From Pseudomonadota bacterium (GTDB lineage: Bacteria > Pseudomonadota > Gammaproteobacteria > Burkholderiales > Rhodocyclaceae), in the NCBI GenBank assembly GCA_040756595.1, contig JBFLYR010000004.1:22695-86694 (forward strand): a stretch of DNA of 64,000 bases, written 5' to 3'. Under the pieces are notes generated by a model. That model had not been told where the DNA came from and did not search any database. It saw only the letters and a list, made by a program, of their open reading frames with translations. Position 1 is the stretch's first letter. Each line of letters begins with the position of its first letter. Shown here piece after piece: positions 12,356 through 63,495 of the stretch. The position numbers were made by a program, and so were the translations under genes.

Positions 12356-14338
12356 ATGCCCGCCCAACCTGATCTAGACCGACTTTTCGCCGCCGACGGC
12401 CCGCTCGCTCGGGCCATTCCCGGTTACCGCCTGCGCGAACAGCAGATCGCCATGGCGCGCGAAGTGCAGGCGGCCATAGAAGCCAATCGCCTGCTGGTCG
12501 CCGAAGCCGGCACCGGCACCGGCAAGACCTTCGCCTATCTTGCACCCGCATTACTCTCAGGCGGCAAGGTGGTCATCTCCACCGGCACCAAGACCCTGCA
12601 GGACCAGCTCTTCAACCGCGACCTGCCGACCGTGCGCGACGCACTCGGCATGCCGGCGACCATCGCCTTGCTGAAGGGGCGCGCCAACTACCTCTGCCCG
12701 CACCATCTCGACCGCGCGCTCTCCGGCGGCAAGCTCAACTCGCGCGCCGAAGTGATGCACTTGCATGCCATCGCACGCTTCGCCAAGCTCACCGCGAGCG
12801 GCGACAAGGCCGAATGCACCGACGTGCCCGAGGATTCCGGCGCGTGGTACCTCGCCACCTCGACGCGCGAGAACTGCCTCGGGCAGGAGTGCGCCCACGT
12901 CAAGGAATGCTTCGTCCTCGCGGCGCGGCGCGAGGCGCTGCTCGCCGACGTGGTGGTCGTGAACCACCACCTGTTCTTCGCCGACGTGATGCTCAAGGAC
13001 GACGGCATGGGCGAACTGCTGCCGAGCTGCAACACCATCATCTTCGACGAAGCGCACCAGTTGCCCGAAGTGGCCGGCCTGTTCTTCGGCGAGAGCGTCG
13101 GCACGGGCCAGTTGCTCGATCTCGCGCGCGATGCCAAGCTCGAAGGCATCGCCGCCGCCAAGGACTACAAGCCGCTGCAGGAGGCGGTGAAGGCGCTGGA
13201 AAAGGCGGCGAAGGACTTGCGCCTCGCCTTCCGCCACGAGGGCCGCCTCGCCACCGCGCAATGGCTCCAGCACCCGCAGGCCATCGAGGCGCTGAAGCAT
13301 GTGCAGGCGATGCTCGACGAGCTTGGCAAGCATCTCGAAAGCCAGGCCGGACGCTCGGAAGGGCTGGCCAACTGCCTGCGCCGCTGCGGCGAACTCGTGC
13401 TGCTGCTGCGCCATTGGCAGAACGCGAAAGTCGGCGCTGACAAGACGGCACAGGGGGAGGACGAAGAGGAAGAAGAAATTCAGCCGGTACGCTGGGTCGA
13501 AGTAACGACCTACGGTGTCAGCTTCAATCTCACGCCGCTGTCGGTCGCACCGATCTTCCGCAAGCAACTCGAAGGCCATCCGCGCGCGTGGATCTTCACC
13601 TCGGCGACACTCGCGGTCGGCGAGGACTTTTCGCATTACCGCAATGCGCTGGGATTGACGGAGGCCGCCACCGGCCGCTGGGACAGTCCCTTCGACTACC
13701 CGGTCAACGCGCTGCTCTATTGTCCGACCGGCATGCCCGACCCGAACCATCCAGATTATGCCGAGGCCGTGGTCGAAGCCTGCTGGCCGGCGATCAAGGC
13801 ATCGCACGGCCGGGCCTTCGTGTTGTGCACCAGCCTACGCGCGATGCGGCGTATCCACGAACTGCTGGAACTGCGCATTGAAAACGACAGGCTCGACATG
13901 CCGTTGCTGCTGCAGGGACAGCGTTCGAAGTCCGAGCTGCTCGACAGCTTCCGCCGCCTCGGCAATGCCGTGCTGGTGGCGAGCCAGAGCTTCTGGGAAG
14001 GCGTTGATGTGCGCGGCGAGGCACTTTCGCTCGTCGTCATCGACAAGCTGCCCTTCGCGCCGCCCGACGACCCGGTGCTCGCGGCGCGCATCGATACCCT
14101 GAAGCGTCAGGGCCGCAATGCCTTCTTCGAGGTGCAGTTGCCGCGCGCGGTGATCAGCATGAAGCAGGGCGCGGGGCGGCTGATCCGCGACGAGACCGAC
14201 CGCGGCGTGCTGATGGTCTGCGACCCGCGCATGGTCGACAAGCCTTATGGCCGGCGCATCTGGCAGAGCCTGCCGCCGATGCGGCGCACGCGCGAGATCG
14301 CCGACGTCGAAGCGTTTTTCGAGAATCAGGAGAGCTGA
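12356..14338 (+). CDS. yoaA: ATP-dependent DNA helicase, XPD-like Fe-S family (YoaA/DinG type)
   Basis: 660 aa with [18 protein letters not shown] (Walker A), DEAH (FDEAHQL), a four-Cys region (C..C..C..C around residues 115-185), and an N-terminus resembling E. coli YoaA as I recall it. Confidence 0.8.
13427..13450 (+). repeat. 24-nt dispersed repeat, copy 2 (3 substitutions)
   Basis: AAAGTCGGCGCTGACAAGACGGCA lies in frame in yoaA, read as KVGADKTA. It is followed by a purine-rich tract encoding QGEDEEEEE. Confidence 0.8.
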
Positions 14339-14339
14339 C

Positions 14340-14660
14340 ATGGCATGGATCCTTCTTTTTCTGGCGGGCCTGTTCGAGGTGGCCTGGGCCATCGGCCTGA
14401 AATACACCGAAGGCTTCACGCGGCCCATCCCGTCGGCGCTGACGCTGGCGGCAATGGTGGCGAGCGTCGTGCTGCTCGGCATTGCCATGAAGTCGCTGCC
14501 GGTCGGCACCGCCTACGCAGTATGGGTCGGCGTCGGCGCGGTGGGCACCGCGATCCTCGGCATCGTGCTGTTCGCCGAGCCGGCCACGGCGGGCCGGCTG
14601 ATCAGTCTGGCCCTGATCGTCGCCGGCATCGTCGGGCTGAAATTGGCGACGCCGGCATGA
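14340..14660 (+). CDS. sugE: SMR-family guanidinium/quaternary ammonium efflux protein (SugE/Gdx)
   Basis: 106 aa, [26 protein letters not shown]..., with a conserved Glu in TM1 and four helices. Confidence 0.88.
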
Positions 14661-15746: not shown

Positions 15747-15990
15747 TATTGTTTTCCTATGGTCTTCACGAGGGGAGCCCCGTCGACCCACCATACGCGC
15801 ATTGCCCACATGTGCAAGACAATTCGTGACCTTGTCAGCAGAGTTCGCTACGAAGCGAAAACCCACATATCAAGCATGGGAAGCAGAATGTGGCCTGGTG
15901 TTATAGGGGAACCACGATATGCGGAAAGTTGGCACTGGCAGGAGGGTGATGCAAGTAAGATGAATACCCCCATTAAAGATTGACCCGACC

Positions 15991-17070
15991 ATGACCGATC
16001 TGTTTTCACCTGCCCGTTTCGGCGCCATCGAGCTTGCCAACCGCATCGTGATGTCGTCGCTGACGCGTAACCGCGCGGGGGCGGGCAACGTGCCGACGCC
16101 GCTGGTGGCCGAGTACTACCGGCAGCGCGCCAGCGCCGGCCTGATCCTCACCGAGGCGTCGCCGATCTGCCCGGCGGGGCACGGCTATCCGCGCACGCCG
16201 GGCATTCACAGCGAGGCGCAGATCGCCGGCTGGCAGGGCGTGACCGATGCGGTGCATCGTGCCGGCGGCAAGATCGCCCTGCAGATTTGGCATGTGGGCC
16301 GCATCTCGCATCCGGATTTGCAGCCCGGCGGCCAGTTGCCCGTTGCGCCGTCGGCGCTCAAGCCGGCCGGCCAGACGTTCACGGGCACGGGCATGAAGGA
16401 CTTCGTCACACCGCGCGCGCTCGCGACGGACGAGATTCCCGGGCTGGTGGCCACGTATGCGCAAGCGGCGAAGAATGCGCTGGATGCCGGCTTCGACGGC
16501 GTCGAGGTGCATGCCGGCAACGGCTATCTGATCGACCAGTTCCTGCGTTCGTCGACCAACCAGCGCACCGATGCCTACGGCGGCAGCAAGGAGAAGCGCG
16601 CCCGCCTGCTGCTGGAAGTGCTCGATGCCGTGGCCGGCGCCATCGGCAACGATCGCGTCGGCCTGCGGCTCTCGCCGGTCACGCCCTTCAACGACATCCG
16701 CGACGACGCGCCGCAGGACACCTTCGACTACGTCGTGACGCAACTGAACCCACGCCGGCTGGCCTTCCTCGACATCCTGCAGGGCACCGGCGGTTCGCCG
16801 CGCGAGCAGTGGGAACCGTTCGACTACGACCGCCTGCGTGATCTGTACGAAGGCAACCTGATCCTCAACAACGGTTACGACTTTGCCAGCGCGCAAGCGG
16901 CGCTCAGTGCGGGCAAGGCCGACGCCGTTGCCTACGGCCGGCTGCTGCTGGCGAATCCCGATCTCGTCGAACGTTTCCGCCGCGGCGCGCCGCTCAACCA
17001 GCCGGACTACGACAGGCTCTACGTCGGCGAGGAAAAGGGCTACACCGACTATCCCGCGCTGACAGGCTGA
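15991..17070 (+). CDS. nemA: NADH:flavin oxidoreductase / N-ethylmaleimide reductase (Old Yellow Enzyme family)
   Basis: 359 aa. It is collinear with E. coli NemA as recalled (PLTRxRA, EYYRQRASAGLI, HxANGYLxxQFL, GYTDYP at the C-terminus). Confidence 0.85.
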   Translation: MTDLFSPARFGAIELANRIVMSSLTRNRAGAGNVPTPLVAEYYRQRASAGLILTEASPICPAGHGYPRTPGIHSEAQIAGWQGVTDAVHRAGGKIALQIWHVGRISHPDLQPGGQLPVAPSALKPAGQTFTGTGMKDFVTPRALATDEIPGLVATYAQAAKNALDAGFDGVEVHAGNGYLIDQFLRSSTNQRTDAYGGSKEKRARLLLEVLDAVAGAIGNDRVGLRLSPVTPFNDIRDDAPQDTFDYVVTQLNPRRLAFLDILQGTGGSPREQWEPFDYDRLRDLYEGNLILNNGYDFASAQAALSAGKADAVAYGRLLLANPDLVERFRRGAPLNQPDYDRLYVGEEKGYTDYPALTG

Positions 17071-17093
17071 AAGTCGGCGCCGGCGAGACGGCA
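17070..17093 (+). repeat. 24-nt dispersed repeat, copy 3 (2 substitutions)
   Basis: AAAGTCGGCGCCGGCGAGACGGCA. Its first A is the last base of the nemA TGA stop codon. Confidence 0.9.
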
Positions 17094-17115: not shown

Positions 17116-18189
17116 ATGAAGCTTTCAGACCTTCCCGCCGATCTGCTGGCCGATCGGCCGCATCTGTTCTCTGCCGCCACCGTGCCGGTGACGGCGGACG
17201 ATATGGCGCGCATGCGGGAAGTGATCGACGCGGTCGAGCATGTGATTGCATTGAAAGTCGGCGCTGGTGAGACGGCAGCCGCAGCAGGGCACGGCGTCTT
17301 CATGGGCTACGACTTCCATCTGACGCCGGCCGGCCCGCAACTCATCGAGATCAACACCAATGCCGGCGGCGGGCTGCTCGCGGCATTGCAGGCGCAGCGC
17401 GACGACGTGCTGGCTGCCTACGCCGCGATGTTCCGCGCCGAATGCCCACGTGAACTCAAGGCGCTCGCCATCGTCGATGAACAGCCGGCGAGCCAGTACC
17501 TCTACCCGGAGTTCCTCGGCTTCAAGCAGTTGTTCGAGGCGCACGGCATCACGGCGGTGATCTGCGATCCGTCCGAACTGATGCTCTGCCACGGCAACCT
17601 TTGGCACGAGGAAACGAAGCTCGACCTCATCTACAACCGGCTCACCGATTTCGATTTTTCAATGCCGGCGCACGCGGTGCTGCGCGAGGCCTGGCGGCAG
17701 GGCGTGACGATCACGCCCAACCCGGTGCTGCACGCGCACTATGCCGACAAGAAGAACCTGATCGCTCTGACCGATGCCGCCCAACTGGAAGCTTGGGGCG
17801 TCGATGCCGGGACGCAACGCATCCTGCTCGATGGCATTCCACGCACCGAACAGGTTGCGACGGAACGTGCCGATGATTTCTGGCAGCGCCGCAAGCAACT
17901 GTTCTTCAAGCCGGCGCTGGGCTATGGCTCGAAGGGCTCATATCGCGGCGACAAGCTGACCAAGCGGGTGTTCGAGGAAATCCTCGCCGGCGACTATGTC
18001 GCGCAAGCCTTTGCTCCGCCGTCGACCGTCCCGCTTGATGTGGCCGGGGAAATGACCGAGCTCAAGGCTGATGTCCGCAACTATGTGTATCGTGGCGCGG
18101 TCCAACTGGTGGCAGCGCGCCTGTATCAGGGGCAGACGACGAATTTCAGGACACCGGGCGGCGGTTTCGCGAAGGTAATCGAGGCATGA
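17116..18189 (+). CDS. Uncharacterised protein, possibly ATP-grasp-like
   Basis: 357-aa ORF with good coding appearance. The motifs IEINTNAGGG and NFRTPGGGFA are reminiscent of ATP-grasp/GSP-synthetase-like folds. This is a weak, memory-based assignment. Confidence 0.5.
   Translation: MKLSDLPADLLADRPHLFSAATVPVTADDMARMREVIDAVEHVIALKVGAGETAAAAGHGVFMGYDFHLTPAGPQLIEINTNAGGGLLAALQAQRDDVLAAYAAMFRAECPRELKALAIVDEQPASQYLYPEFLGFKQLFEAHGITAVICDPSELMLCHGNLWHEETKLDLIYNRLTDFDFSMPAHAVLREAWRQGVTITPNPVLHAHYADKKNLIALTDAAQLEAWGVDAGTQRILLDGIPRTEQVATERADDFWQRRKQLFFKPALGYGSKGSYRGDKLTKRVFEEILAGDYVAQAFAPPSTVPLDVAGEMTELKADVRNYVYRGAVQLVAARLYQGQTTNFRTPGGGFAKVIEA
17254..17277 (+). repeat. 24-nt dispersed repeat, copy 4 (2 substitutions)
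   Basis: AAAGTCGGCGCTGGTGAGACGGCA lies in frame in the 17116 ORF and is read as KVGAGETA. Confidence 0.9.
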
Positions 18190-18683: not shown

Positions 18684-19978
18684 GTTACGAAGAAGCCCTC
18701 GATCATTTGCTTGCCGCCGCAGAGCCCGTGGCGGAAACGAAGCAGTTGCCACTCTCGGTTGCACGCGGCCGCATCCTCGCCGAAGCGGTCGCTTCGACCG
18801 TGACGGTGCCGCCGCTCGACAACAGCGCGATGGACGGCTATGCGGTGCGCTGCGCGGATGTCCAACAGACCGGTGTGGCATTGCCCATATCGCAGCGCAT
18901 CCCGGCGGGCAGCGTCGGCCATGCGCTCGCAGCCGGTACGGCAGCGCGCATCTTCACCGGCGCGCCGGTACCGGCCGGTGCCGATGCGGTGGTGATGCAG
19001 GAATATTGCACGCAAATGAGCGAGCACGGCCCCGATGGCAGGGTGATCGTCAATCAGGTGCCGAAGCCCGGCCAGAACATCCGCCGTGCGGGCGAGGACA
19101 TCACTGCCGGCGCCGCCGTGCTGCAAGCCGGCACGCGCATCGGCGCGGCCGAGATCGGCCTCGCGGCCTCGATCGGCATCGCGCAACTGCCGGTGCGGCG
19201 CCACCTGCGCGTCGCGCTGCTGTCGACCGGCGACGAGCTGACCGAACCCGGCAATCCCCTGCCGCCGGGCGGCATCTACAACTCGAACCGCCATTTCCTG
19301 CGTGCGATGTTCGAGCAGATGGGTTGCACGGTGACCGATGCCGGCCATGTGCCGGACACGCTCGATGCGACGCGTGCGGCGCTGCGCGCGGCGGCGGAAG
19401 CGCACGACCTGATCGTCACCTCCGGCGGCGTGTCGGTGGGCGAGGAAGATCACGTCAAGCCGGCGGTCGAGGCGGAAGGCGCGCTGTCGCTGTGGAAGAT
19501 CGCCATCAAGCCGGGCAAACCGCTGGCCTTCGGCCATGTGCGAAAAGTCGGCGCTGGGCCGTCCCAAGCCGACGCCCCCCCTGTGGGGGGCAGCGAGCCG
19601 GGTTTGCGAGCGAGGGGGGCCAATAAAGTCGGCGCTGGCGGGACGGCATTCATCGGCCTGCCGGGCAACCCGGTTTCCTGCTTCGTGACCTTCCTGCTGT
19701 TCCTGCGCCCCTATGTGCTGAAGCGCATGGGCATGGCGACCACCTTGCCGCTGGCGCGTCAACTCGTGTCGGCGTCCGACTGGACCAAGCCCGAGGATCG
19801 GCGCAGCTTCCTGCGCGCGCGCATCGCGCCGGACGGCCGCGTCGAGTTGTATCCGAACCAGAGTTCCGGCGTGCTGACCTCCTGCGCCTGGGCCGACGGA
19901 CTGGTGGATGTCGAGGCGAACAAGACCTTCAAGGCGGGCGACCCGGTGCGCTATCTCGCCTTCGCCGACTTGCTATAG
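18677..19978 (+). CDS. moeA: Molybdopterin molybdenumtransferase MoeA (carries an in-frame insertion of about 35 codons)
   Basis: 433 aa with the motifs PPLDNSAMDGYAV, SGGVSVGEEDH, KPGKPLAFG and GLPGNPVS. The insertion lies between the last two motifs. Confidence 0.9.
   Translation: MLSYEEALDHLLAAAEPVAETKQLPLSVARGRILAEAVASTVTVPPLDNSAMDGYAVRCADVQQTGVALPISQRIPAGSVGHALAAGTAARIFTGAPVPAGADAVVMQEYCTQMSEHGPDGRVIVNQVPKPGQNIRRAGEDITAGAAVLQAGTRIGAAEIGLAASIGIAQLPVRRHLRVALLSTGDELTEPGNPLPPGGIYNSNRHFLRAMFEQMGCTVTDAGHVPDTLDATRAALRAAAEAHDLIVTSGGVSVGEEDHVKPAVEAEGALSLWKIAIKPGKPLAFGHVRKVGAGPSQADAPPVGGSEPGLRARGANKVGAGGTAFIGLPGNPVSCFVTFLLFLRPYVLKRMGMATTLPLARQLVSASDWTKPEDRRSFLRARIAPDGRVELYPNQSSGVLTSCAWADGLVDVEANKTFKAGDPVRYLAFADLL
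19544..19557 (+). repeat. 24-nt dispersed repeat, copy 5 (5' 14 nt only)
   Basis: AAAGTCGGCGCTGG is followed by GCCGTCCCAAGCCGAC, which resembles a deleted reverse-orientation copy. It lies in frame in moeA. Confidence 0.7.
19625..19648 (+). repeat. 24-nt dispersed repeat, copy 6 (perfect)
   Basis: AAAGTCGGCGCTGGCGGGACGGCA lies in frame in moeA and is read as KVGAGGTA. Confidence 0.95.
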
Positions 19979-22999: not shown

Positions 23000-25594
<2,595 letters not shown>

Positions 25595-44963: not shown

Positions 44964-45008
44964 TCGCATAACTTCTTCATTCTTTTCGCTTCATTTCAAG
45001 GATTCTTC

Positions 45009-46975: not shown

Positions 46976-46998
46976 TACAAAACCCAAGGAGACCGGCG

Positions 46999-48261
46999 AT
47001 GGCAGAGAAAAATAACAGCCCCGAGAAGCTGCTTTACTGTTCCTTCTGCGGCAAAAGCCAGCACGAGGTCAAGAAACTGATCGCTGGTCCGTCGGTGTTC
47101 ATCTGCGACGAGTGCATCGACCTCTGCAACGACATCATCCGTGATGATACCGGCGGTACCGAAACCACGAAGCCGACGAACGATCTGCCGATTCCGGGCG
47201 AGATCCTCCAGGTGCTCGACCAGTACGTGATTGGCCAGGGACGGGCGAAGAAGATTCTCGCCGTTGCCGTTTACAACCATTACAAGCGTTTGCGCGGCGA
47301 AGGCAAAAAGGACGAGGTCGAGCTGTCGAAGAGCAACATCCTGCTCGTCGGCCCGACCGGCTCAGGCAAGACGCTGCTGGCACAGACGCTGGCGCGCATG
47401 CTCAATGTGCCCTTCGTGATCGCCGATGCGACGACGCTGACCGAAGCCGGCTATGTCGGCGAAGACGTCGAGAACATCATCGCCAAGCTGCTGCAGAAGT
47501 GCGATTACGAGCCTGCCAAGGCGCAGCAGGGGATCGTCTACATTGACGAGATCGACAAGATCTCCCGCCGCAGCGAGAACCGCTCGATCACGCGCGACGT
47601 GTCGGGCGAGGGTGTGCAGCAGGCACTGCTCAAGCTGGTCGAGGGCACCATAGCCTCGGTGCCGCCGCAGGGCGGACGCAAGCACCCGAACCAGGACTTC
47701 GTGCAGGTCGATACCGCCAACATCCTGTTCATCTGCGGTGGCGCCTTCGACGGCCTCGACAAGATCATCCAGGAGCGTTCGGAGAAGTCGGGTATCGGCT
47801 TCGGTGCGCAGGTCAAGAGTAAAACCAATGTCAGCATCAGCGAAGTGCTCGCGCAGGTCGAGCCTGACGATCTCGTCAAGTACGGCCTGATCCCGGAACT
47901 CATCGGCCGTCTGCCGGTGGTGGCCAACCTTTCCGAACTCGACGAGGACGCGCTGGTCCAGATCCTGATCGAACCGAAGAATGCGCTGATCAAGCAATAC
48001 CAGAAGCTCTTCGCCATGGAAGGGGTCGAACTGGAAGTGCGTCCCTCGGCCCTGCAGGCGATTGCCAGGAAAGCGGTGATGCGCAAAACCGGCGCGCGCG
48101 GCCTGCGTTCCATCATGGAAAACGTGTTGCTCGACACCATGTTCGAACTCCCCAGCCTGAGCGGTGTCGAAAAAGTCGTGATCGACGAGAACATGATCGA
48201 ATCGGGCAACAAACCGCTGCTGATCTACGCCGACCAGCCCAAGGTTTCCGGCTCTAACTAG
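46999..48261 (+). CDS. clpX: ATP-dependent Clp protease ATP-binding subunit ClpX
   Basis: 420 aa with a zinc-binding N-terminus (CSFCGK...CDEC), Walker [16 protein letters not shown] and the pore loop GYVGED. Confidence 0.97.
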
Positions 48262-48317
48262 GGCAGTTTTCTTTTGCGGTATCCTGCCGTTGCCCGCTGT
48301 GATTGAGCGGGTGGCGG

Positions 48318-48345
48318 CTTGAATCCCTTGCCGCTGTCCCCATGT
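48318..48345 (+). promoter_or_regulatory. Candidate sigma32 (RpoH) heat-shock promoter of lon
   Basis: CTTGAAT (48318-48324), a 13-nt spacer, then CCCCATGT (48338-48345). This is a near-perfect match to CTTGAAA-N13-14-CCCCATNT and ends 35 nt before the lon ATG. Confidence 0.7.
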
Positions 48346-48380
48346 GGGGAAGACACGATTTTTCATGAGAGGATGCGTCC

Positions 48381-50816
<2,436 letters not shown>

Positions 50817-50852
50817 GTGGCAAGGCTTGCTAGAATCTGCCTCGGTTTGTGA

Positions 50853-50928
50853 GGGTGCTTAGCTCAGTTGGTAGAGCGTCGCCCTTACAAGGCGAATGTC
50901 GGGGGTTCGAGCCCCTCAGCACCCACCA
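50853..50928 (+). tRNA. tRNA-Val (anticodon UAC)
   Basis: Acceptor stem GGGTGCT/AGCACCC, D-arm AGCTCAGTTGGTAGAGC, anticodon loop CTTACAA, T-loop GGTTCGAGCCC and a CCA end. A TAGAAT hexamer lies 16 nt upstream. Confidence 0.92.
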
Positions 50929-50961
50929 ATAAACCTTGCAAACCAATTTGAGGTAATCTCG

Positions 50962-50987
50962 AAAGCCCGCCCAGTGCGGGCTTTTTG
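50962..50987 (+). terminator. Rho-independent terminator after tRNA-Val(UAC)
   Basis: AAGCCCGC-ccagt-GCGGGCTT followed by TTTT. Confidence 0.75.
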
Positions 50988-51009
50988 TTCGTTGCGCCAA
51001 CGCCAAAAG

Positions 51010-51897
51010 ATGCTGCTACGCATACTCGCCATCATCTTCCCGATCTTCGCCATAGTCGCGGCTGGCTGGCTCTACTCCCGCTATCGAAAGACGCGTGGCG
51101 GCATCGACATGGCATTCGCCAACCAGCTCAACATGGAAATTTTTGTGCCGGCGCTGATTTTTGCCGCGCTGGCATCGAAAAGTTTCGACCTCGCTGCCTA
51201 TGACCGTCTGGCGCTGGGCGCGCTGCTGTTAATGCTGGGGGCTGGTGTCCTGTCATGGGGGCTCACTTTGGTACTGCGCGAACAGCCCAAAACCTTTGTG
51301 CCGCCGATGATGTTCGTCAACTCCGGCAACATGGGCCTGCCGCTGATGGTGCTGGCCTTCGGTGACGCGGCTCTGCCGGCCGCAGTGGTGCTGTTCTTCG
51401 TCGAGAACGTGCTGCACTACACGCTTGGCACCTGGATGCTCGATCATCACGCACGATTGTGGAACCTCTGGCGCGTGCCGGTCATTTTCGCCGCACTGGT
51501 GGCGCTGGCGATCAATCTCTCCGGCTTTGAGCTCTGGCAGCCGCTGTACCTGTCGATCAAGCTGCTTGGCGACGTGGCAATTCCCTTGCTGCTGTTTTCA
51601 CTGGGCGTGCGGCTGGCCGTGTCGAATTGGAGCGATGTGCGCCTTGGCCTGATCGGTGCCGTGGCCTGTCCGGTGAGCGGCATGCTGCTCGCCTGGCTGT
51701 TGGCGTGGCTGCTCGGCTTGAATGAGAGCGACGCCGCCTTGCTCATGGTGTTCGGGGCCTTGCCGCCGGCCGTGCTCAATTATGTTTTCGCTGAACGCTA
51801 CCAGCAGGAGCCGGCCAAGGTGGCGTCGATCGTCATGATCGGCAATCTTGGTGCGCTGGTCTTCGTGCCGCTGGCGCTCGCCCTGACTTTGAAATAG
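51010..51897 (+). CDS. AEC-family (auxin efflux carrier-like) transporter
   Basis: 295 aa from ATG 51010, a polytopic membrane protein. The MLLRILAIIFPIFAIVAAGW start and overall pattern are typical of the AEC family. Confidence 0.7.
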   Translation: MLLRILAIIFPIFAIVAAGWLYSRYRKTRGGIDMAFANQLNMEIFVPALIFAALASKSFDLAAYDRLALGALLLMLGAGVLSWGLTLVLREQPKTFVPPMMFVNSGNMGLPLMVLAFGDAALPAAVVLFFVENVLHYTLGTWMLDHHARLWNLWRVPVIFAALVALAINLSGFELWQPLYLSIKLLGDVAIPLLLFSLGVRLAVSNWSDVRLGLIGAVACPVSGMLLAWLLAWLLGLNESDAALLMVFGALPPAVLNYVFAERYQQEPAKVASIVMIGNLGALVFVPLALALTLK

Positions 51898-51912
51898 GAG
51901 TTGCAGATTCCC

Positions 51913-52239
51913 ATGTCGCCACCTGAACAACCCGGATTCATCGGCAAACTGGTTTCCGTCATCATCGGTGCGATGCTGCTGGTGCTCGGCTTCATGTTCT
52001 CGATGGTGCTGCTGGCCGCCATCGTCGTTGTGGGTCTTGCCATCTGGGCCTGGTTCTGGTGGAAGACCCGGAAGCTGCGCCAGCAGATCGACGCACGCAT
52101 GCGTGAAAGTGCGGCGAATGCGCATGACTCGACCGGCGGCGACATCATCGAGGGTGAGGCGGTGGTCGTCGAAGAAGAGATTACTCGGGTAACTTCGAAT
52201 CGATTGCCAGAGTCACCGGACCGGCGTTCACCAGACTGA
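51913..52239 (+). CDS. Small membrane protein (hypothetical)
   Basis: 108 aa from ATG 51913 with two hydrophobic helices followed by an acidic tail. Its 3' 59 nt overlap the convergent dtd gene, so the true C-terminus is uncertain. Confidence 0.4.
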
Positions 52240-52633
52240 CCTGCATGTCGGCACCGAACACCCCGGTCGGTACCGGGCGTCCGAGTGCAGTGCCCAGCGC
52301 GGCGACGAAGCGTTCAAACATCGGTTGCGAAAAATCGGCTCTGGCGGCACGGCTCCATGAGGGGCGGTTGCCCTTCTTCACCGACGCGTAGAGCGTGAAT
52401 TGCGACACGGCGAGAACCTCGCCGCCGCTGTCGACGACGCTGAGGTTCATCACGCCTTGCGCATCCGAGAAGATGCGCAAGCCAAGCAGTTTGCGCACCA
52501 TCCAGTCGACGTCGGCGCCAGTATCACTGTCCTCGAAGCCGGTCAGCACCAGCATGCCAGGGCCGATGCTACCGGTGGTATTCCCGGCGACCGTGACGGA
52601 AGCGCATGTAACCCGCTGTACGACGACTCTCAT
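52181..52633 (-). CDS. dtd: D-aminoacyl-tRNA deacylase
   Basis: 150 aa with [23 protein letters not shown] and [15 protein letters not shown]. It is collinear with E. coli Dtd. The 639-aa track ORF is this gene plus an antisense shadow of recC. Confidence 0.92.
52331..52354 (+). repeat. 24-nt dispersed repeat, copy 15 (degenerate, 4 substitutions)
   Basis: AAAATCGGCTCTGGCGGCACGGCT lies antisense inside dtd and is read as SRAARADF. Confidence 0.6.
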
Positions 52634-52684
52634 GATGGACGCGAGTATAGCGATTCGCCGCCGCGATTCGGCTAGCATTCGGGG

Positions 52685-55600
52685 ATGCTGCACATCCACC
52701 ATGGCAATCGTCCGGACAGCCTCGTCGCCGCGTTGACGACGCTGTTGCGCGTCGATCCGCTGCCGCTGCTGGAACCGGAAACCATCGTCGTCCCCTCGAC
52801 CGCGATGGCGCGCTGGCTGGGCTTCCAGCTTGCGGACGGGCTGGGGATCGCGGCCCAGAATGCCTTCGTCTTTCCGGCGTCCTACGTCTGGCAATTGTTC
52901 GGCCGCGTGCTGCCCGACGTGGCGACGAGCAATCCCTTCGACCGGGATGCAATGCATTGGCGCCTGCTGCGTTTGCTGGGTGACAGTCGCGCACCGGAAA
53001 TCCGCCATTACCTCGACGGGGATGACGGTGCACGCCAGTACGAACTGGCGGGAAAGCTTGCCAGCCTGTTCGATCGTTATCTCGTCGAGCGGCCCGACTG
53101 GATCGCGGCATGGAGTGCAGGCAAGCGGCTCGGCCTCGGTCCGGATGAAGTCTGGCAATCCGGACTCTGGCGCACGTTGCGCGCCGACCTGCCAGAGGTT
53201 GCGACGGAACATCCGCGCGAGCGCTTCCTCGCGGCATTGCGTGCCCAACCGGCCGTGCGTGCGCGCCTGCCGCGCCGACTCAGCCTGTTCTGTGTCGAGG
53301 CGATGCCTGCGCTGTATTGGGAAGTCTTTGTCGGACTCGCAGTGTGGCTCGACGTGCATGTCTTCGTGCTGGCGCCCTGTCGCGAATACTGGGGCGACAT
53401 CGAGAAAATGCGTGAACGGCTGCGCATGGAACTCGAACAACCCGAGGCGGCCCTGCTTTATGAAACCGGCCATCCGCTGCTGGCCTCGCTGGGCCGGGCG
53501 CGCCAGCATGCGGTGCTGCGGCTTGCCGATGCTGCAACGCAGACCGCCAGTGCCGAACATGAGTATTTCGTTGCTCCGCCCTCGACATTGTTGGGTGCCT
53601 TGCAGCGCGACATCCTTGACCTTTCGGCCAGTCGCGCGGTAGCGATGGACGCCACGCTGCAGATCCACGACTGCCACGGTGCGCAGCGCGAAGCAGAGGT
53701 ACTGCTCGACCGCCTGCTCGATCTGTTCGAACGGCTGCCGGATTTGCGACCAGCCGACATTCTGATCCTCACGACCGACATCGAAGCCTACGGTCCGATC
53801 ATCGAGGCCGTGCTGGCACATGCGCCGCGGGAGCGGCGTATTCCATGTACCGTGGCCGACCGGCCGCTCGCCATTGCGCCGCTCTGGCGCGCGCTGCGTC
53901 AGCTGTGCGTCGTGGCGGCGGGTGAGTTCGATGCGGAAAGCGTGCTGTCCCTGCTTGACGAACCCGCGCTGCGGCGCGCATTCGACATCGATGAAAACGA
54001 ATTGCCGCGACTGCGCGACTGGGTGGGCGAGGCTGGCATCCGCTGGGGCATCGACGGCGCGGCGCGTGCCCGACATGGTCTGCCGGCGGAAGATGCCCAC
54101 AGCTGGCGTGCCGGGCTACAGCGGCTGCTACTGGGCGTGGCGTTGCCGGATGCGCCCGAGCGTCTGTGGCAGGGCATGCTGCCGGTGACGGGAATCGAAG
54201 GCGAGCGGGCTGAGTTGCTGGGCCGTTTCGTCGATTTCACCGAAGCTTTGTTTGGGCTGAGTGAAAAAGTCGGCGCTGGCAGGACGGCATCGGAATGGTG
54301 TCGGCTGCTTGCCGCGACGCTGGAACACTTTCTCGCACCCGACGAAGCGGAGGAGGGGCAGGCGCAAGGCTTGCGGGAAACGCTGACCCGGCTCGGCGAA
54401 CTGGCGGATTCCGCGCGATGCGCCACCCGGCTGCCGTTGTCGGTGCTATTGCGTGAAATTGATGAACGGCTGAAAGAGCAGGCGCCCGCACAGGCATTCG
54501 TTTCCGGCACGGCGACGATCGCGGCGCTGCAACCCGGCCGTCCCGTTTCCGCGCGTGTCATCTGTCTCGTCGGCATGAACGACGGGGCCTGGCCGCGCCC
54601 GGCGACGCCACAGGGTTTCGACCTGATGGCCGCGCATCCGCGTCCCGGTGATCGCAACCGGCGCGGCGAGGAGCGTCATGCTTTCCTCGAAGCACTGCTG
54701 TGCGCGGGAGATGCCCTGATCGTCACGTATGCCGGGCGCGATCCGCGCAGCAACCTTGAATTGCCGCCCGCTGCACCGCTCGCCGAACTGATCGACACTC
54801 TTGTGGCAATGACCGGGAAAGCGGCCGATGCGCTGGTAGTGCAGCATCCATTGCAACCCTTTGGCAGCGCGTATTTCGATGGTAGAGACACGCGTATCTT
54901 CAGTTTCGATGCCGAGCATTGCCGACAAGCCTCCGTGCCGGCAGCCTCCGCATTCCTTGGCCGGAAGGTGCGTGTCGAAGCGCTTGACGTTGATGAAATC
55001 GACCTGCCGGAACTGCAGCGCTTTTTTGCTCACCCGGTGCGTCATTTCCTGCGCGAGCGCATGGGCATCCATCTCGAAGAGTCCGAGGAATTGCTCGACA
55101 TGCACGAACCCTTCGTGCCGAATGCGCTCGAAGCCTACCGGTTGCGGGAGGCGCAGTTCGCAGGGCTGGTGGCCGGCCACCCGGTTGATGAGGTGACCGC
55201 GCTATTGCATGCCCGTGGCTGGTTGCCGCAGGGGGTGGCGGGCGACCTGGCCGCGCGCGCGGCGCACGACGAGGCATTGCCGCTCTGGCAGAGCGCGCAA
55301 GCCTGGCTCGATGCAGGGCGCCAACCTGACTGCGCGGTGGAATTCGCAGCGCACGGGATACGCCTGAGCGGCCGGCTCGACGGCCTGACCGACCGCGGAC
55401 TCTGGCGCGTGCGCCACGGCAAGCTGCGCGCGAAGGACCGCTTGCGCCTGTGGCTCGATCATCTGCTGCTGAATGTCGCGGCGCCGGCCGGTGTGCCGCT
55501 GCACAGCAGCTTGATTGCCCGCGATGCGTTCATGCAGCTCGTACCGGAACCGCGTGCGCGTGAGGTTCTGGCTGGTCTGCTGGCGCTCTATCGTGATGGC

Positions 55601-55831
55601 TTGCTGCAGGCCTTGCCCATCTATCCGGAAACGGCGTGGGCCTGGTTGGAACAGAAGAACTGGCGCCGGGAGTGGGAGGGCGATGCTTTCAACTACAAGC
55701 CTGGCGAGCGCGATGACGCATATGTGCGCCTGGCCTTGCGCGATCGCCCGGAAGACCCGCTCGGCGCTGAGTTCCAGCAATTGGCAGAGCACATCTTTGG
55801 CCCCCTGAAACAGAAAGTCGGCGATGGCTGA
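52685..55831 (+). CDS. recC: Exodeoxyribonuclease V gamma subunit
   Basis: 1048 aa, beginning MLHIHHGNR...L, as is typical of RecC. It is followed by overlapping recB and recD genes. Confidence 0.9.
54266..54289 (+). repeat. 24-nt dispersed repeat, copy 16 (1 substitution)
   Basis: AAAGTCGGCGCTGGCAGGACGGCA lies in frame in recC and is read as KVGAGRTA. Confidence 0.93.
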
Positions 55832-55837
55832 ACGGCA
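55814..55837 (+). repeat. 24-nt dispersed repeat, copy 17 (3 substitutions)
   Basis: AAAGTCGGCGATGGCTGAACGGCA. The substitutions create the recB ATG (55824) and the recC TGA (55829-55831). Confidence 0.75.
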
Positions 55838-58800
55838 CTTCGTTCCCCTCGATTCGCCTTTCGAGGTCGAACTGACCGGCACGCGCCTGCTCGAAGCCGG
55901 CGCCGGTACCGGCAAGACCTGGATGCTGGCCGCGCTGGTCCTGCGCCTGCTGCTTGAACAGCAGATCGAGATTGGCAAGATCCTCGTCGTCACCTACACA
56001 CGCGCAGCCAGCGGCGAGCTGCGCGGCCGCGTTCGTGCCCGGCTGGTCGAGGCGCTCGCGGCTTTCGATGCGGGTCGCGCGGATGAACCCTACTTGCAAG
56101 CGCTGGTCGAGCGCATCGGTACCACGGGTACCGCTGGCGCCACCGCTGCCAGGGTACGCCTGCGGCTGGCGATCGAGAGCTTCGACGAAGCGTCCATCTT
56201 CACGATCCACGGTTTCTGCCAGCGCGCGCTCGGCGAAACGGCCTTCGCCGCCGGCCAAGCTTTCGAACGTGAATTGATTGCCGATCAGGGCGAGTTGCTC
56301 GCCGCCGTGGCACGTGATGCCTGGCGCAGGGAAATGGCGACGGCCTCGCCGCTCTGGGCGCAATGGCTGATTGACCACGTGCAGGGACCGGAGGGGCTGG
56401 CCGCCATCGTCAGATCGCATCTGGGACGCGTCGATGCGCGACTTGAAGCCCCCGCTCAGGTGGATCGGAAAGCCGCGGAGCAGCGCTTTGCCGCTGCCTT
56501 CGTAATGGTCAGGGACCTCTGGAAAGCCGATGCGGCGCGGATTCTCGACTGGCTGGCTGGCGCGAAACTGAACCAGCAAAGCTACAGCGCGAAGAAGATG
56601 CAGCCGCGCAGCGTTGCGCTCGGATTGTGGCTGTCCGCTGAACCACCCCTGTCGCCCCTGCTGCCTTTGCCCGAGGGCATCGAACATTTCGGGCTGGCGA
56701 AGATCGCGGCCAAGTTGAACAAAGGCGGTCAATTGCCGCAGCATGCTTTCTTCGCTGCCATGGACGAGCTGCTGCAATCCGCTGGCGAATTGCAGGCGGC
56801 TTGCGAAAGCGCGACGCGCCGGCTGCTGCAGGATTTCCTGCTGACTGCGCGAACCGGGCTTGCGGAGAGAAAACGGCGCAGTGGCCAGCAGACCTACGAT
56901 GACCTGCTGGTCGACCTCGCGCAGGCGCTCGACGGCCCGGCCGGGCCCCGACTGGTTGATAGCCTGCGGGCGCGCTACCGCATCGCCCTCGTCGATGAGT
57001 TCCAGGACACCGATCCGCTGCAGTTGCGAATCTTCATGTGTATCTTCGGTACCGACGAACGGCCGCTGATTTTCGTCGGCGATCCGAAACAGGCGATCTA
57101 CGGTTTCCGTGGTGCCGACGTATTCGCCTATCTCAAGGCGCGCACGCAAGCGGACACCGGTTATGCGCTGTTGGAGAATCGGCGCTCCGATCCGCCGCTG
57201 CTCAAGGCGGTGAATGCGCTGTTCGCCCGGCCGCTGCCGTTCCTGCTCGACGGCATGCCTTACGAGCCTTCCCGTGCGGCGGACAGGGTGCGGGAGATCT
57301 GCCGGATCGATGATGACGCCGCGCCGCTGTCACTCTGGACGATGCAAGCGCCCGAGGGCGGAAAAGGCTTCCCGAAGGACACGGCGCGCACGATGGCTGC
57401 CGAGGCCGTCGCCGCCGATATCGCGCGGCTGTTGGGCCTGAGCGCCACGGGGCGCGCGACGCTCGGCGAACGTCCTCTGGGCGGCGGCGATATCGCCGTG
57501 CTGGTGCGCCGGCATCGGGATGGTGATCTGGTCCGGCAGGCGCTGGCGCGGCACGGCATCCCCAGCGTCAGCGGCGGTGGTGGCAGCGTCTGGCACAGCG
57601 ATGAGGCAGTCGAGATCGAACGGCTGCTGCTCGCGGTGGCCGCGCCGGCGCGCGAGGGCTTGGTGCGCGCGGCATTGGCGACGATATTGCTCGGCGCGGA
57701 TGCAGCGCAGCTGGCAGCATGGCTGCACGATGAACCGGCGTGGAGTGCGCGCCTCGATTGCTTTCATGATGATCTGCTGCTATTCCGCGAACGCGGCTTC
57801 ATGGCGATGTGGCGCCGGCTGCTGCGCCGCGAAGGTGTTGTCGCGCGCGTGCTGGAACGGCCGGATGGCGAGCGGCGGCTGACCAACTACCGCCATCTGG
57901 CCGAATTGCTGCAGGCCGCCGAACAGGGCGCTGCGCTCGATGTCGAGGGGCTCGCGCGTCATATCGCGCAGCAGCGGCAGGCACCGGAAGGCGAGGAGAG
58001 CCAGTTGCGGCTGGAAAGCGACGCGCATCTCGTGCGCATCGTCACCCTGCATGCCGCGAAGGGTTTGCAATACCCCATTGTGTATTGTCCCTTCCTCTGG
58101 CTGGGACCCGAGGAGGACAAGACGGGCTGGCCCGTATTGGCACATCATGAGGGCAAAGCCTGCCTCGACTTCGGCTCGGAAGGCATCGACGGCCTGCGGG
58201 CGGCGGCGGATCGCGAGGACGCGGCCGAGGAGCTCCGGCTCGCCTACGTCGCGCTGACGCGCGCCGAACATCGCTGCATCCTTGCCTGGGGCAAGGTGAA
58301 CAACTGCGCCCGCTCGCCGCTCGCCTGGCTGCTGTTCGGGCCGCGCGAATCCGTGGCCGAAGAACCGCGTGTCTGGCTGGCGCGTTGGCTGGAAACCCAT
58401 GACGAAAGCGCGGCGCTGCACGCGCTCGAAGCGGGCCTCGACAGAGCCTTGAAGGTGATGCCGTTGCCGGGCGACGGTAGCGCGCCGCTGCCGCCCGCGG
58501 AAACGGTGCGAGCACATCGGCCACGGGACTTCATGAGCAAGGTGCCCGCGCCGTGGCGGGTTCAGAGCTTCTCGTCGCTCGCTGCCCGTCTCTCCGAAGA
58601 GGCGGAAACCGCCGATCGCGACGCGGTCGTGCCAGCCAGTGCCGTACCGCCAGCGCCGACTTTTTCGAATATTCAAAACTTCCCGCGCGGCACACGTGCC
58701 GGTAGCTGCCTGCATGCCTTGTTCGAGCGCATCGATTTCCAGGGCCGCACGCCAGTCGGCCCGACCGCCGCTGCGACGCTGGTGGCCTTCGGTTACGCGC

Positions 58801-60859: not shown

Positions 60860-60862
60860 GTT

Positions 60863-61108
60863 TTAGCGGCCCTGCTGGATCTTGTTGAGCATGCGGGCGC
60901 GGCCGGAAGCTTCGGCCTGGTTGGCCGCCGAAACCTGCCGACCGTAGGCGTCGCGATCCTCCTTGGAGCGCTTCACGGCCTCGATGCTCTTGATACAGCG
61001 CCAACGCGATCCTGTCTTGGTGATCAGCAACTTCATCTCCTCCACGGGATGATGAGTGCGGCAGTGATAGCAGTAGCGTGTCGCGGGTTCTTTTTTCTCG
61101 GTACTCAT
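60863..61108 (-). CDS. Small conserved-looking hypothetical protein
   Basis: 81 aa and basic, with a CYHC...C pattern. It has an ATG with an upstream ribosome-binding-site-like sequence. I recognise no family. Confidence 0.45.
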   Translation of the reverse strand: MSTEKKEPATRYCYHCRTHHPVEEMKLLITKTGSRWRCIKSIEAVKRSKEDRDAYGRQVSAANQAEASGRARMLNKIQQGR

Positions 61109-61155
61109 AAGCCTGCGGATTATACCTGTTTCGATTATTTTGCTTAATACCTCTG

Positions 61156-63495
61156 CTATGACGCCGGCTGCAGGCCGGTCGGCTTGAGTTTGGACGGAAT
61201 GGCGTGGCCCTTGCGGGCACGCTGGCCGCGATAGGCGGCGGCATCCTTGCCGGACAACTTCCAGTCGGTCGGTTTACCCCCTCGGCCACTACCGGTGACG
61301 ATGAAACTGTCGGCACCGACAGCGACGGCGGCCAGCTCGTCCTTGGCGTCAAGCGTCTGGATGATGGTGCCGCGCCCCTTGGCCATGGTCTTGAGTTCGG
61401 CGAGCGGGAAGAGCAGCAGCCGGCCGCAGGCCGTAATCGCTGCTGCCGTCCCGCCAGCGCCGACTTTTGCCGGGACGAGCGGCTTCTCGCCCTTGTCGAG
61501 CGACATGAAGGCCTTGCCGGCGCGGTTGCGCGAGACGAGATCGGCAATGCCGGCGATGAAGCCGTAGCCGCCGGAATTGGCGAACAGGTACTGCGTTTCC
61601 GGCGCATCGGTGAGCGCGTGGGCAAGCTTGCTGCCGTCCTGGAAGTCGACCAGCGTGGTGATCGGCACCCCGTCGCCGCGACCGCCCGGCAGGTCGGCCA
61701 CGCGTACGCTGTACGCTCTGCCATTGGTGTCGATGACGACCAGCGGCCAGATCGTGCGGCTTTCCTGAACGATATAGGGGAAGTCACCGGTCTTGTATCC
61801 GATGCTGGCCGGATCGATGCCATGGCCCTGGCGCGTGCGCACCCAGCCGTTCTTAGAGACGATCACGGTCACCGGCTCGTCGGGGATCGCGACTTCCGCG
61901 GCGGTCACCGGGGCGACGGCCTCAATTAGCGTACGGCGCTCGTCGCCGTATTTCTTCGCGTCCTCGGTGATCTCGCGCACGACGAGTTTGGTCAACTCCT
62001 TGCGGTCTTCGAGGATGCGGCGCAGTTCCTTCGCTTCCTCGGCCAGCGCCTTCTGTTCCTGCTCGATCTTGATGCCTTCGAGTTTCGCGAGCTGGCGCAG
62101 GCGGATTTCGAGGATGTCCTCGGCCTGAATCTCCGAAAGCTTGAACTTGGCCATCAGTTCGGCCTTGGGTTCGTCGGCCTCGCGGATGGTCTTGATGATC
62201 TTGTCGATCGACAGGAAGGCGAGCAGGCGGCCAGCGAGGATGTGCAGGCGGCGCTCGACTTCGCAGAGGCGGTGGGCGGAACGACGCTCGACGGTGGCAT
62301 GGCGGAACTGCACCCATTCGTGCAGCACCTGCAGCAGGTTTTTTTGCGCCGGCCGGCCATCGGTGCCCATCATGGTCATGTTGACCGACACGTTGGCTTC
62401 GAGGCTGGTGCGCGCGAGCAGTACGGCCATGAACTCGTCCTGCGGCACCTTCGACGTGCGCGGCTCCAGCACGATGCGCACGGGGTCCTTTTCGTTCGAT
62501 TCGTCGCGCACGGCGTCGAGCACGCCGAGCATCACCTGCTTGAGGTTCTTCTGCTCCTGCGAGACATCCTTCTTGCCCGGGCGTGCTTGCGGGTTGGTGA
62601 CGGCCTCGATTTCCGAGAGTACTTGCGCCGTGGAAACACCATGCGGCAGTTCGTAGACGATGACGCGCCACTGGCCGCGCGCCAGTTCCTCGATGCGCCA
62701 GCGGCAGCGCATGCGGACGCTGCCGCGGCCGGATTCGTAGGCGGCGCGGATGTCGGCATGGAGCGAGATGATCTGGCCGCCGCCGGGAAAGTCCGGGCCG
62801 GGCAGGGCGGCAAGCACTTCATCGAGCTGCGCACTCGGTTTGCGGATCACCAACTTGAGTGCTTCAGCCACTTCGCGCAGGTTGTGCGGTGGAATCTCGG
62901 TGGCCATGCCGACGGCGATGCCCGAGGCACCGTTGAGCAGCACGAAGGGCAGGCGGGCGGGCAGCAGCGACGGCTCGGTCATCGTGCCGTCATAGTTGGG
63001 CACGAAGTCGACCGTGCCCTTGTCGATCTCCGCTAGCAGCAGTTCTGCAATCGGTGTCAGGCGGCATTCGGTGTAGCGCATCGCCGCCGCGCCGTCGCCG
63101 TCGCGCGAGCCGAAGTTGCCTTGGCCGTCGACCAGCGGATAGCGCAGCGAGAAGTCCTGGGCGACGCGCACCATGGCGTCGTAGACGCTGCTGTCGCCGT
63201 GGGGGTGGAACTTGCCGATGACGTCGCCGACCACGCGCGCCGACTTGACGTGCTTGGCCGTCGACGGCAGGCGCATGTCGTTCATCGCGTGGAGGATGCG
63301 GCGCTGCACCGGCTTCAAGCCGTCTTCGACCTGCGGCAGGGCGCGCGATTTCACCACGCTCATCGCGTAGGCGAGGTAGGCGCGCTCTGCATAACTGTCG
63401 AGGGGCAGCGCCTCGCCTTCTGCAAAAGTCGGCTCTGGTGGGACGGCAGGGGGCGGCAGATCTGCCGCTGCTTCGAAAAGATCAGGCGTGTTCAT
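61156..63495 (-). CDS. parC: DNA topoisomerase IV subunit A
   Basis: 779 aa with the motifs [11 protein letters not shown], the AAMRYTE catalytic Tyr block and a C-terminal beta-pinwheel. Its start overlaps the parE stop codon (ATGA). Confidence 0.93.
61444..61467 (-). repeat. 24-nt dispersed repeat, copy 19 (perfect)
   Basis: The + strand reads TGCCGTCCCGCCAGCGCCGACTTT. The copy lies in sense and in frame in the parC C-terminal domain and is read as KVGAGGTA. Confidence 0.95.
63425..63448 (+). repeat. 24-nt dispersed repeat, copy 20 (2 substitutions)
   Basis: AAAGTCGGCTCTGGTGGGACGGCA lies antisense in the parC N-terminal extension and is read as AVPPEPTF. Confidence 0.9.

Follow-up and report, generated by a model that had tools for sequence, protein, structure and literature searches.

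The sequence words that most resemble the element described here are the DNA uptake sequences (DUS) of the Neisseriaceae, a 12-mer (ATGCCGTCTGAA) with dialects and the receptor ComP, and the uptake signal sequences (USS) of the Pasteurellaceae, which have a 9-mer core in a motif of ∼30 bp. In preprint work, sequence-specific uptake signals are treated as known only in two families, both host-associated, and a reading-frame bias, a bias towards genome-maintenance genes and the existence of dialects have been described for DUS and USS. The subject of this study is a 24-nt word, AAAGTCGGCGCTGGCGGGACGGCA, which is present in ∼20 copies (∼1 per 3.4 kb) in a stretch of 64,000 nucleotides from a Pseudomonadota bacterium of the Rhodocyclaceae (assembly GCA_040756595.1, contig JBFLYR010000004.1, positions 22,695 to 86,694 of the forward strand). 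The whole of this 64-kb stretch is called the window below. We tentatively read the word as an uptake-signal-like motif that would be kept by the molecular drive of biased DNA uptake.

Like DUS, the word is clade-specific, hyper-abundant, asymmetric and present on both strands. Both are tolerated in coding sequence with a frame bias, have positions that are conserved across species, and are present in recBCD and topoisomerase genes; dialects, known for DUS, may exist for the word as well. An information content in excess of what is needed is common to the word, DUS and USS. DUS differ in length and density (10-12 bp at ∼1 per kb, compared to 24 bp at ∼1 per 3.4 kb), in having more inverted pairs and terminators, and in the family that carries them, which for the word is the Sterolibacteriaceae. 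Furthermore, the DUS 10-12-mer GCCGTCTGAA has a CTG core that is absent from the reverse strand of the word (TGCCGTCCCGCC), and the TGCCGTC shared by the two is largely coincidental. USS are comparable to the word in total length and in their unequal conservation along the motif, they spread by point mutation, and they have copies in poorly conserved parts of proteins. An association of USS with genes of the RecBCD complex has been reported in preprint work. However, USS have one core with AT-rich flanks, are denser and are linked to competence, whereas the word has two GC-rich cores and is informative at all of its 24 positions. HIP1, the highly iterated palindrome of the cyanobacteria (GCGATCGC), shares with the word a genome-wide enrichment, frequent occurrence in coding sequence and in-place substitution, but it is an 8-bp palindrome linked to methyltransferases, while the word is asymmetric and 24 bp long.

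Sequence and information content of the word

Eighteen copies with at most 3 mismatches were present in the window, compared to none in 100 dinucleotide-preserving shuffles. Two further copies matched less well, with 4 mismatches at 52331 and 6 mismatches at 15925, and half of a copy was present at 19544. The density was confirmed on 143 kb that had not been chosen by the word, consisting of the window and four RecD-seeded loci, in which 42 copies were counted (1 per 3.4 kb). This extrapolates to roughly 900-1200 copies per genome. The initial annotation had already described the element as longer and less dense than DUS and USS, and this holds.

The consensus form of the word is (A/G)AAAGTCGGCGCTGGCGGGACGGC(A/G), 24 bp in length. 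In the 42-copy set each copy carried ∼35 bits of information, compared to the 12.7 bits required to specify such a number of sites. Non-seed copies contained two near-invariant cores, TCGGC at positions 5-9 and ACGGC at positions 19-23, and were variable at positions 4, 16-18 and 24. A sequence logo of 210 copies from related genomes had sharp borders, and as there was no conservation outside positions 0-24, the word is a self-contained unit; that it forms part of a larger repeat was ruled out by the same logo. It lacks palindromic symmetry and does not fold into a secondary structure by itself (z about 0). A search of Rfam matched no family to the word and found only four tRNAs.

Distribution among bacteria

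The exact word was found in more than 110 eight-kb blocks among the matches listed, and in more than 220 when a scan for the variant with C at position 4 was included. Among the matches listed, the carriers were nearly all metagenome-assembled genomes (MAGs) labelled Methyloversatilis, Sulfuritalea, Sulfurisoma, Sterolibacteriaceae or Rhodocyclaceae; in the NCBI taxonomy, Methyloversatilis and Sulfuritalea belong to the Sterolibacteriaceae. A clade of betaproteobacteria of the Sterolibacteriaceae/Rhodocyclaceae type, most of them uncultured and from freshwater and soil, carries the word as a signature throughout the genome. On the complete 3.05-Mb chromosome OW818671, matches were spread across 0.03-2.5 Mb. 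The clpB regions of 80 other beta- and gammaproteobacteria (1.44 Mb in total), which served as negative controls, contained no copy with up to 4 mismatches, and none was present in 76 other RecD-seeded loci, including those of Neisseriales (L148, L157, L189, L205 and L230). The literature searched contained no paper with the sequence of the word or tying uptake sequences to this clade, and the word appears to be undescribed so far.

Single exact copies outside the clade were seen on short contigs of the isolate Tepidimonas thermarum AA-1 (L273), of a Hydrogenophilales MAG (L308) and of a MAG labelled Desulfuromonadales (L047), and may reflect contamination, mis-binning or transfer. Among viral contigs, the exact word occurred in 13 only; these were host-like in appearance and uninformative on phage depletion. 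On the IMG/VR contig 3300009945_000063 (L382, 629-2123 and 3489-4269), a 316-bp unit was repeated 4.7 times in tandem, and each unit contained the word and had attC-like ends (..TAAC / GTTAGGC). The array lies beside an open reading frame (ORF) which, as read from its sequence, resembles an integron integrase, and it looks like a series of duplicated integron cassettes.

Origin and conservation of the copies

Four relatives with 68-72% RecD identity had copies at the same positions in recC, at the recC/recB junction, in recB and in parC. In 17 orthologous pairs the word itself was 91% identical, compared to 71% for the 90-nt flanks (p = 1.5e-5). Outgroups that lack the word differed in length by no more than 1-2 residues at the recC, the recB and both parC sites, and a gap of 8 residues was never observed. 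In ParC the outgroup peptide was already similar to that of the copy; at the 63425 site of parC, locus L115 had a similar peptide of equal length, with the copy absent. The comparison was extended to 189 homologous locus pairs that span a copy. The copy was present in both members of 110 pairs, 22 pairs had at least 5 substitutions and no gap, 56 had small indels, and a single pair had a gap of 12 nt or more (12 nt). In the alignments the indels crowded directly outside the word and not inside it. As 8-codon gaps were missing and the 22 gap-free pairs differed by substitution only, the single copies evolve in place and are not inserted DNA. A mobile insertion of 24 nt was ruled out by the same missing gap with respect to the outgroups and by the lack of any clean presence/absence indel in the pair test. 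Among close relatives the same site ranged from 0 to more than 7 mismatches, and sites decay and improve freely.

The conservation of orthologous copies well above their flanks also speaks for an array of binding sites for a chromosomal protein, with a role in nucleoid organisation, the marking of self-DNA or similar, in which each site would be kept by selection and the variants would co-evolve with the protein. We consider such an array unlikely. The two cores do constitute a direct repeat with a 14-bp offset, which would suit a tandem dimer, the copies of the window are spaced slightly more evenly than expected at random (coefficient of variation 0.62 vs 0.95, p = 0.02-0.07), and copies are spread over the complete chromosome OW818671. 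However, the information per site exceeds the requirement, and the free decay and improvement of sites among close relatives speaks against strong selection on each of them. The positions of the copies, moreover, track tolerance (linkers, stop-codon edges and convergent gene ends) and no functional landmark, and to maintain ∼1000 sites of 24 bp by selection alone would presumably impose a heavy mutational load.

Orientation, reading frame and placement

Orientation and placement were analyzed on 244 pooled copies. The orientation was independent of the local GC skew (110:133 for 243 copies, and 46:50 where |skew|>0.04) and of the direction of the genes (73 sense and 66 antisense copies), which removes explanations at the RNA level and those that resemble Chi or the FtsK orienting polar sequences (KOPS). 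A polar chromosome signal oriented with replication had some appeal in the window itself, where 15 of the 19 copies lie on the G-rich + strand (p = 0.02), where recBCD is located, and where the GCTGGCGG core of the word is one base away from the Chi site of Escherichia coli. It is nevertheless hardly credible: the 15:4 ratio is local to the window, conservation of the word is lowest in its Chi-like segment (positions 10-17), and a length of 24 bp is three times that of any known Chi or KOPS. An RNA-level element or Rfam family was likewise ruled out by the equal use of sense and antisense, the Rfam result and the lack of structure.

Genic positions accounted for 57% of the copies and intergenic positions for 43%. 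The sense copies were translated in frame 1 (KVGAGGTA) in 50 of 73 cases (p = 4e-10), and the antisense copies in one frame (AVPPAPTF) in 40 of 66 (p = 3e-6); in the window, all 8 of the 8 sense copies were in frame 1. A peptide-level motif KVGAGGTA was ruled out by the intergenic share and by the use of three other frames. Coding copies were located in weakly constrained regions, such as a linker of variable length in ClpB and poorly conserved stretches of RecC, RecB and ParC. Intergenic copies were found between convergent genes in 27% of cases (12% expected) and between divergent genes in 12% (27% expected), and in tandem gene pairs the copy was located at a median of 12 nt past the upstream stop codon. 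Two highly conserved gene clusters of the window, the nuo operon (1-9938) and the tig-clpP-clpX-lon cluster (44900-52300), had no copy at all. The probability of finding none in the first 9.9 kb was 0.03-0.05, and the copy-free clusters fit a placement that is limited by tolerance.

About half of the DUS and USS copies are located in terminators, according to preprint work. No such share in terminators or inverted pairs was found for the word, although its intergenic copies nonetheless prefer the 3' ends of genes. The inverted pairs at gene ends that had been cited as a parallel with DUS turned out to be uncommon, as did terminator-like hairpins. A role as terminator was mostly ruled out, since the word does not fold and inverted neighbors are few.

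Lineage variants

The word appears to have variants that differ between lineages. The G4>C variant (AAACTCGGC...) was present in 24 of the 35 non-seed copies of the MAG CAZAWN, compared to 13 of 114 elsewhere (Fisher p = 1.4e-10), and this MAG dominated the exact matches to the C4 word. The same change was found at the orthologous recC, junction and recB sites, where it represents parallel changes. Both forms of position 4 were present on the same contigs of CAZAWN, and chimerism of this MAG is possible. In the MAG CAWJAK, all six copies in recBCD-parC (L114) had G7>A, compared to none of five on another contig (L086); this split could stem from DNA imported from a lineage with another dialect or from mis-binning. 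Linked A3>T and A24>G changes were observed in three copies on the chromosome OW818671.1 (loci L029, L081 and L092).

Hairpin composites

Single copies make up more than 95% of all copies. The rare remainder consists of composites in which copies are combined into hairpins, and these were of two types. In type B, a decayed forward copy (F', positions 1-17) is followed by a loop, an inverted copy (R), a linker and a full forward copy (F), which adds 54 nt. In every case R was the inverted variant CGTCCCGCCGGGCGCC..., which pairs with F in a hairpin of 19 bp (dG -24 to -26 kcal/mol, z -4.2 to -4.6). Type B was found at no fewer than 15 loci with unrelated flanks, and tandem arrays of 2-3 units with a period of 54-57 nt were present within contigs of one metagenome sample. 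Hairpin units of 54-57 nt were seen in L395-L408 (11 of these 14 are contigs of the metagenome sample Ga0209172), L005, L275, L286, L340 and L359, with loops that were identical within an array and different between loci. At the recB site, L112 and L005 were filled with 54 additional nt (18 codons), whereas the window, L111, L113 and L114 have a single copy; in L286 a 54-nt composite is placed in a recB-like context, as judged from its flanks. Type A (81-93 nt) was found in the window's moeA and, with unrelated flanks, at five more loci. The composite of moeA, ∼105 nt in all, was noted at unrelated loci in L007, L026 (two tandem units), L102, L320 and L342. The inner part of type A was also found without the word, even in a Hydrogenophaga MAG.

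The composites behave like small palindromic elements, mobile or expanding, that use or mimic the word. In this they resemble REPINs, the hairpin doublets of repetitive extragenic palindromic (REP) sequences, which are associated with the transposases termed RAYTs; the 54-nt doublets likewise behave like small mobile or expanding units. REP/REPIN systems also have hundreds to thousands of copies of a word of ∼25 nt, singlets next to hairpin doublets, and lineage variants. One could accordingly propose that the word as a whole is recognised by a dedicated single-strand transposase or recombinase, that the doublets are mobile and the singles their immobile relatives, and that ectopic conversion homogenises the set. 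The fixed inverted variant and hairpin of the type B doublets at unrelated loci and in tandem arrays, the filled and empty recB sites, the type A composites in moeA and elsewhere, and the linked variants all argue for this proposal, which we nevertheless regard as improbable. The single copies are not palindromic, do not fold and lack an insertion signature, the pair test having given only one gap of 12 nt or more, and the same 24-mer is common to several genera, whereas REPs usually differ between species. In addition, more than half of the copies are genic and show a frame bias, while REPs are extragenic. A scan of 1.8 Mb of carrier loci for RAYT/IS200-like motifs found none, which for a single-copy gene is a weak test.

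The rare composites are also similar to the Rickettsia palindromic elements (RPE), as both are palindromic and inserted in frame in genes that stay intact; the composites are 54-93 nt long and add 18 codons to recB and 27 codons to moeA. RPE differ in their length of 100-150 nt and in that they are not built on a stand-alone 24-mer.

Genome-maintenance genes and the resemblance to DUS

The initial annotation had noted that six copies are located in genome-maintenance genes, namely in yoaA, in recC, at the recC/recB junction, in recB and twice in parC, and all six are indeed so placed (13427, 54266, 55814, 58640, 61444 and 63425). Its total of 15 coding copies is reached only if the half copy in moeA is included; otherwise 14 were counted. 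The coding copies outside this gene set are those at 17254, 19625, 24563, 29554, 39894, 42939, 44224 and 52331. Genome-maintenance genes represent 22.6% of the coding bases of the window and hold 6 of the 12-15 coding copies, a post hoc excess that is weak to marginal (one-sided binomial p = 0.035 for n = 12, 0.052 for n = 13 and 0.10 for n = 15). In a function-blind test, 105 word-bearing ORFs from element-seeded loci of ∼45 MAGs were set against 105 ORFs that had been drawn from these loci as length-weighted controls. The word-bearing ORFs were functionally very diverse (169 Pfam families) and included one RecB, two ParC, one GyrA-like protein and two photolyases; the controls included one ParE and two DEAD/Helicase_C proteins. 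With at least 6 of 105 compared to 1-3 of 105, no significant excess was detected (Fisher p = 0.5), at a resolution limited by the listing of only those families that have two or more members. Those in recBCD, parC and yoaA are probably no different from the rest of the population and give no evidence of a special targeting of repair genes. The window holds a recBCD-parCE cluster of long genes with variable linkers, and the copies in this cluster are old and orthologous.

The second argument that had been advanced for a relation to DUS was a likeness between the reverse strand of four copies, starting with ATGCCGTC, and the beginning of the Neisseria 12-mer. This reading was recovered in five copies, and the match is coincidental. 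The base that follows position 24 was C in 25 and T in 8 of the 42 word-independent copies, and as the leading A of ATGCCGTC was present in only 8 of the 42, it is not part of the motif. The likeness also involves two poorly conserved positions, 18 and 24, which vary in 16% and 41% of the non-seed copies and rank with the least conserved of the word. A true relative of the Neisseriaceae DUS, read by a ComP-like minor pilin, is therefore very improbable. In its favor are the reverse strand that begins with TGCCGTC, the affiliation of both groups with the Betaproteobacteria and the pilin genes of the carriers; however, only GCCGT is well conserved, the CTG/TGAA half is absent, and the sampled Neisseriales loci had no copies. 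The general parallel with DUS and USS that had been drawn from these two arguments fared better than the arguments themselves. It is supported by the clade specificity, the lack of polarity, the frame bias, the substitution in place, the conservation of orthologous copies, the apparent dialects and the presence of type IV pilins.

Biased DNA uptake as a possible explanation

The traits that the word has in common with the DUS/USS class are a clade-restricted over-representation, the lack of polarity, a frame-biased tolerance in coding sequence and an origin by point mutation. These observations would be explained by a directional force that recognises a specific sequence in double-stranded DNA, whatever its orientation, and under which single copies arise and persist where they are, through point substitution. 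Such a force would turn near-matches into copies, repair decayed ones and shift in concert within a lineage, and the copies would survive where they are tolerated, i.e. in flexible linkers (in two or three preferred frames), at C-terminal ends and in the first bases past stop codons. The best candidate for this force is biased DNA uptake during natural transformation. A DNA receptor at the cell surface, plausibly linked to type IV pili, would prefer fragments that bear the word, and better-matching alleles would then replace poorer ones by homologous recombination, as in the molecular-drive model proposed for USS and DUS. To our knowledge, biased uptake combined with homologous recombination is the one mechanism known to give such a pattern. 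The initial annotation had proposed a search for the competence machinery, and type IV pilins and MshE/PilB-type ATPases are indeed encoded in the carrier MAGs, which weakly supports uptake.

Several observations weigh against biased uptake. Motif scans of the sampled loci for comEA, comEC, dprA and a secretin, all of them weak tests, found none, and the literature searched contained nothing on uptake or transformation in this clade. The density and the 24-bp length are unlike those of the DUS/USS class (∼1 per kb with a core of 9-12 nt), and the conservation of the word throughout its length, the ∼3-fold lower density, the rarity of terminator contexts and the existence of composites call for caution. 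An inverted 8-mer or longer adjoined only ∼10% of the intergenic copies, compared to 4% of random positions. G7>A is regional and not genome-wide in CAWJAK, the linked T3 and G24 variants look like subfamilies related by descent, which a single preferred sequence does not predict, and the composites at copies suggest that a recombinase or transposase also recognises the word.

An extension of the uptake model, which we consider possible though on balance doubtful, is that the word represents a third, independent family of uptake signals, in environmental Sterolibacteriaceae/Rhodocyclaceae. This family would be long (24 bp) and bipartite, would have its own dialects and a new receptor, and would be accompanied by hairpin elements of 54-93 nt that home into or expand from the word and are tolerated in frame in essential genes. 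If correct, this would be an independent case of uptake signals in a free-living environmental clade, with a word that is about three times as informative as needed, that evolves by substitution and that shifts its dialect at orthologous sites. With such a case one could put the molecular-drive model to the test, look for a DNA receptor of a new type and follow recombination between uncultured lineages in metagenomes. The origin and purpose of uptake signals are old open questions. Should uptake prove to be the wrong idea, one would still have to account for a 24-bp word that is kept at about a thousand positions in each genome, recBCD, parC, clpB and moeA among them. On the practical side, the word can serve as a sharp taxonomic marker in binning, while in annotation it gives rise to spurious 'repeats'.

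Copies in the window and neighboring genes

The positions of all copies in the window are given in Table 1. Gene identities (yoaA, recC, recB, recD, parC, clpB, moeA, hpnC, hpnE, dtd, an ABC-F gene and others) were taken from NCBIfam and Pfam.

Table 1. Copies of the 24-nt word in the window and their genomic context.
Feature	Position	Strand	Context
Perfect copy	9939-9962	+	Intergenic, between the convergent PCuAC gene 9423-9917 (+) and metY 9964-11235 (-)
Hairpin at the 9939 copy	9927-9935		Upstream CCAGCGCCG pairs with positions 8-16 of the copy; terminator-like
Copy, 3 mismatches	13427-13450	+	yoaA (DinG-family repair helicase), sense, frame 1, KVGADKTA
Weak copy, 6 mismatches	15925-15948	+	Intergenic, upstream of an N-ethylmaleimide reductase-like gene
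Copy, 2 mismatches	17070-17093	+	Starts on the final stop-codon base of ORF 15991-17070
Copy, 2 mismatches	17254-17277	+	ORF 17116-18189 (no family match), sense, frame 1, KVGAGETA
Type A composite	19544-19648	+	moeA; half copy 19544-19557, then inverted partial copy GCCGTCCC..GCCGAC
Type A composite, remainder	19625-19648 (perfect copy)	+	moeA; G/C hairpin, then the perfect copy; the composite adds 81 nt = 27 in-frame codons
Copy, 1 mismatch	24563-24586	+	clpB, sense, frame 1, KVGAGGTA; length-variable linker preceding LLRTQV
Copy, 2 mismatches	29554-29577	+	Antisense, first codons of a YkuD L,D-transpeptidase gene
Copy, 1 mismatch	33176-33199	+	Directly after the stop codon of methyltransferase gene 32348-33175
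Copy, 1 mismatch	35865-35888	-	6 nt past the stop codon of ABC-F ATPase gene 35895-37526 (-)
Copy, 1 mismatch	38298-38321	+	Starts on the final stop-codon base of pseudouridine synthase gene 37540-38298
Copy, 1 mismatch	39894-39917	+	Antisense in rhodanese-domain gene 39603-40658 (-), CRPARADF
Copy, 2 mismatches	42939-42962	-	hpnE (-), sense, frame 1, KVGADRTA
Copy, 2 mismatches	44224-44247	+	Antisense in hpnC (-), SRLASADF
Degenerate copy, 4 mismatches	52331-52354	+	Antisense in dtd 52181-52633 (-), SRAARADF
Copy, 1 mismatch	54266-54289	+	recC, sense, frame 1, KVGAGRTA; orthologous copies in L112-L114; outgroups gapless there
Variant copy AAAGTCGGCGATGGCTGAACGGCA	55814-55837	+	Holds the recC stop (TGA) and the recB start (ATG); same variant at the same place in L111-L114
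Copy, 1 mismatch	58640-58663	-	Antisense in recB, AVPPAPTF; orthologous in L111-L114
Perfect copy	61444-61467	-	parC (-), sense, frame 1, KVGAGGTA; orthologous in L111, L112 and L114
Copy, 2 mismatches	63425-63448	+	Antisense in parC, AVPPEPTF; orthologous, partly decayed, in L111, L112 and L114

The recC stop and recB start codons both fall within the junction variant (GCGATGGCTGA), an arrangement that is kept in four relatives. The variant supplies the C-terminal tail of RecC, K(V/L)(G/S)DG, and L115 and L132 are without this tail. The copy at the start of the YkuD gene is read in a third antisense frame (PSRQRRL) and represents the positively charged n-region of the signal peptide.

The dtd gene, which encodes D-aminoacyl-tRNA deacylase, is masked by a longer ORF (52181-54100), which is spurious and crosses recC in antisense, and the end of dtd overlaps convergently with that of a small membrane-protein ORF (51901-52239). 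The stretch between 33176 and 35888 is 2.7 kb of low-GC DNA (56% G+C) with small ORFs and a gene for a PEP-CTERM protein; it is flanked by two copies in inverted orientation, has none within, and may be an island. In the squalene-synthesis cluster hpnC-hpnD-hpnE (41907-44823, minus strand), two of the three genes contain a copy.

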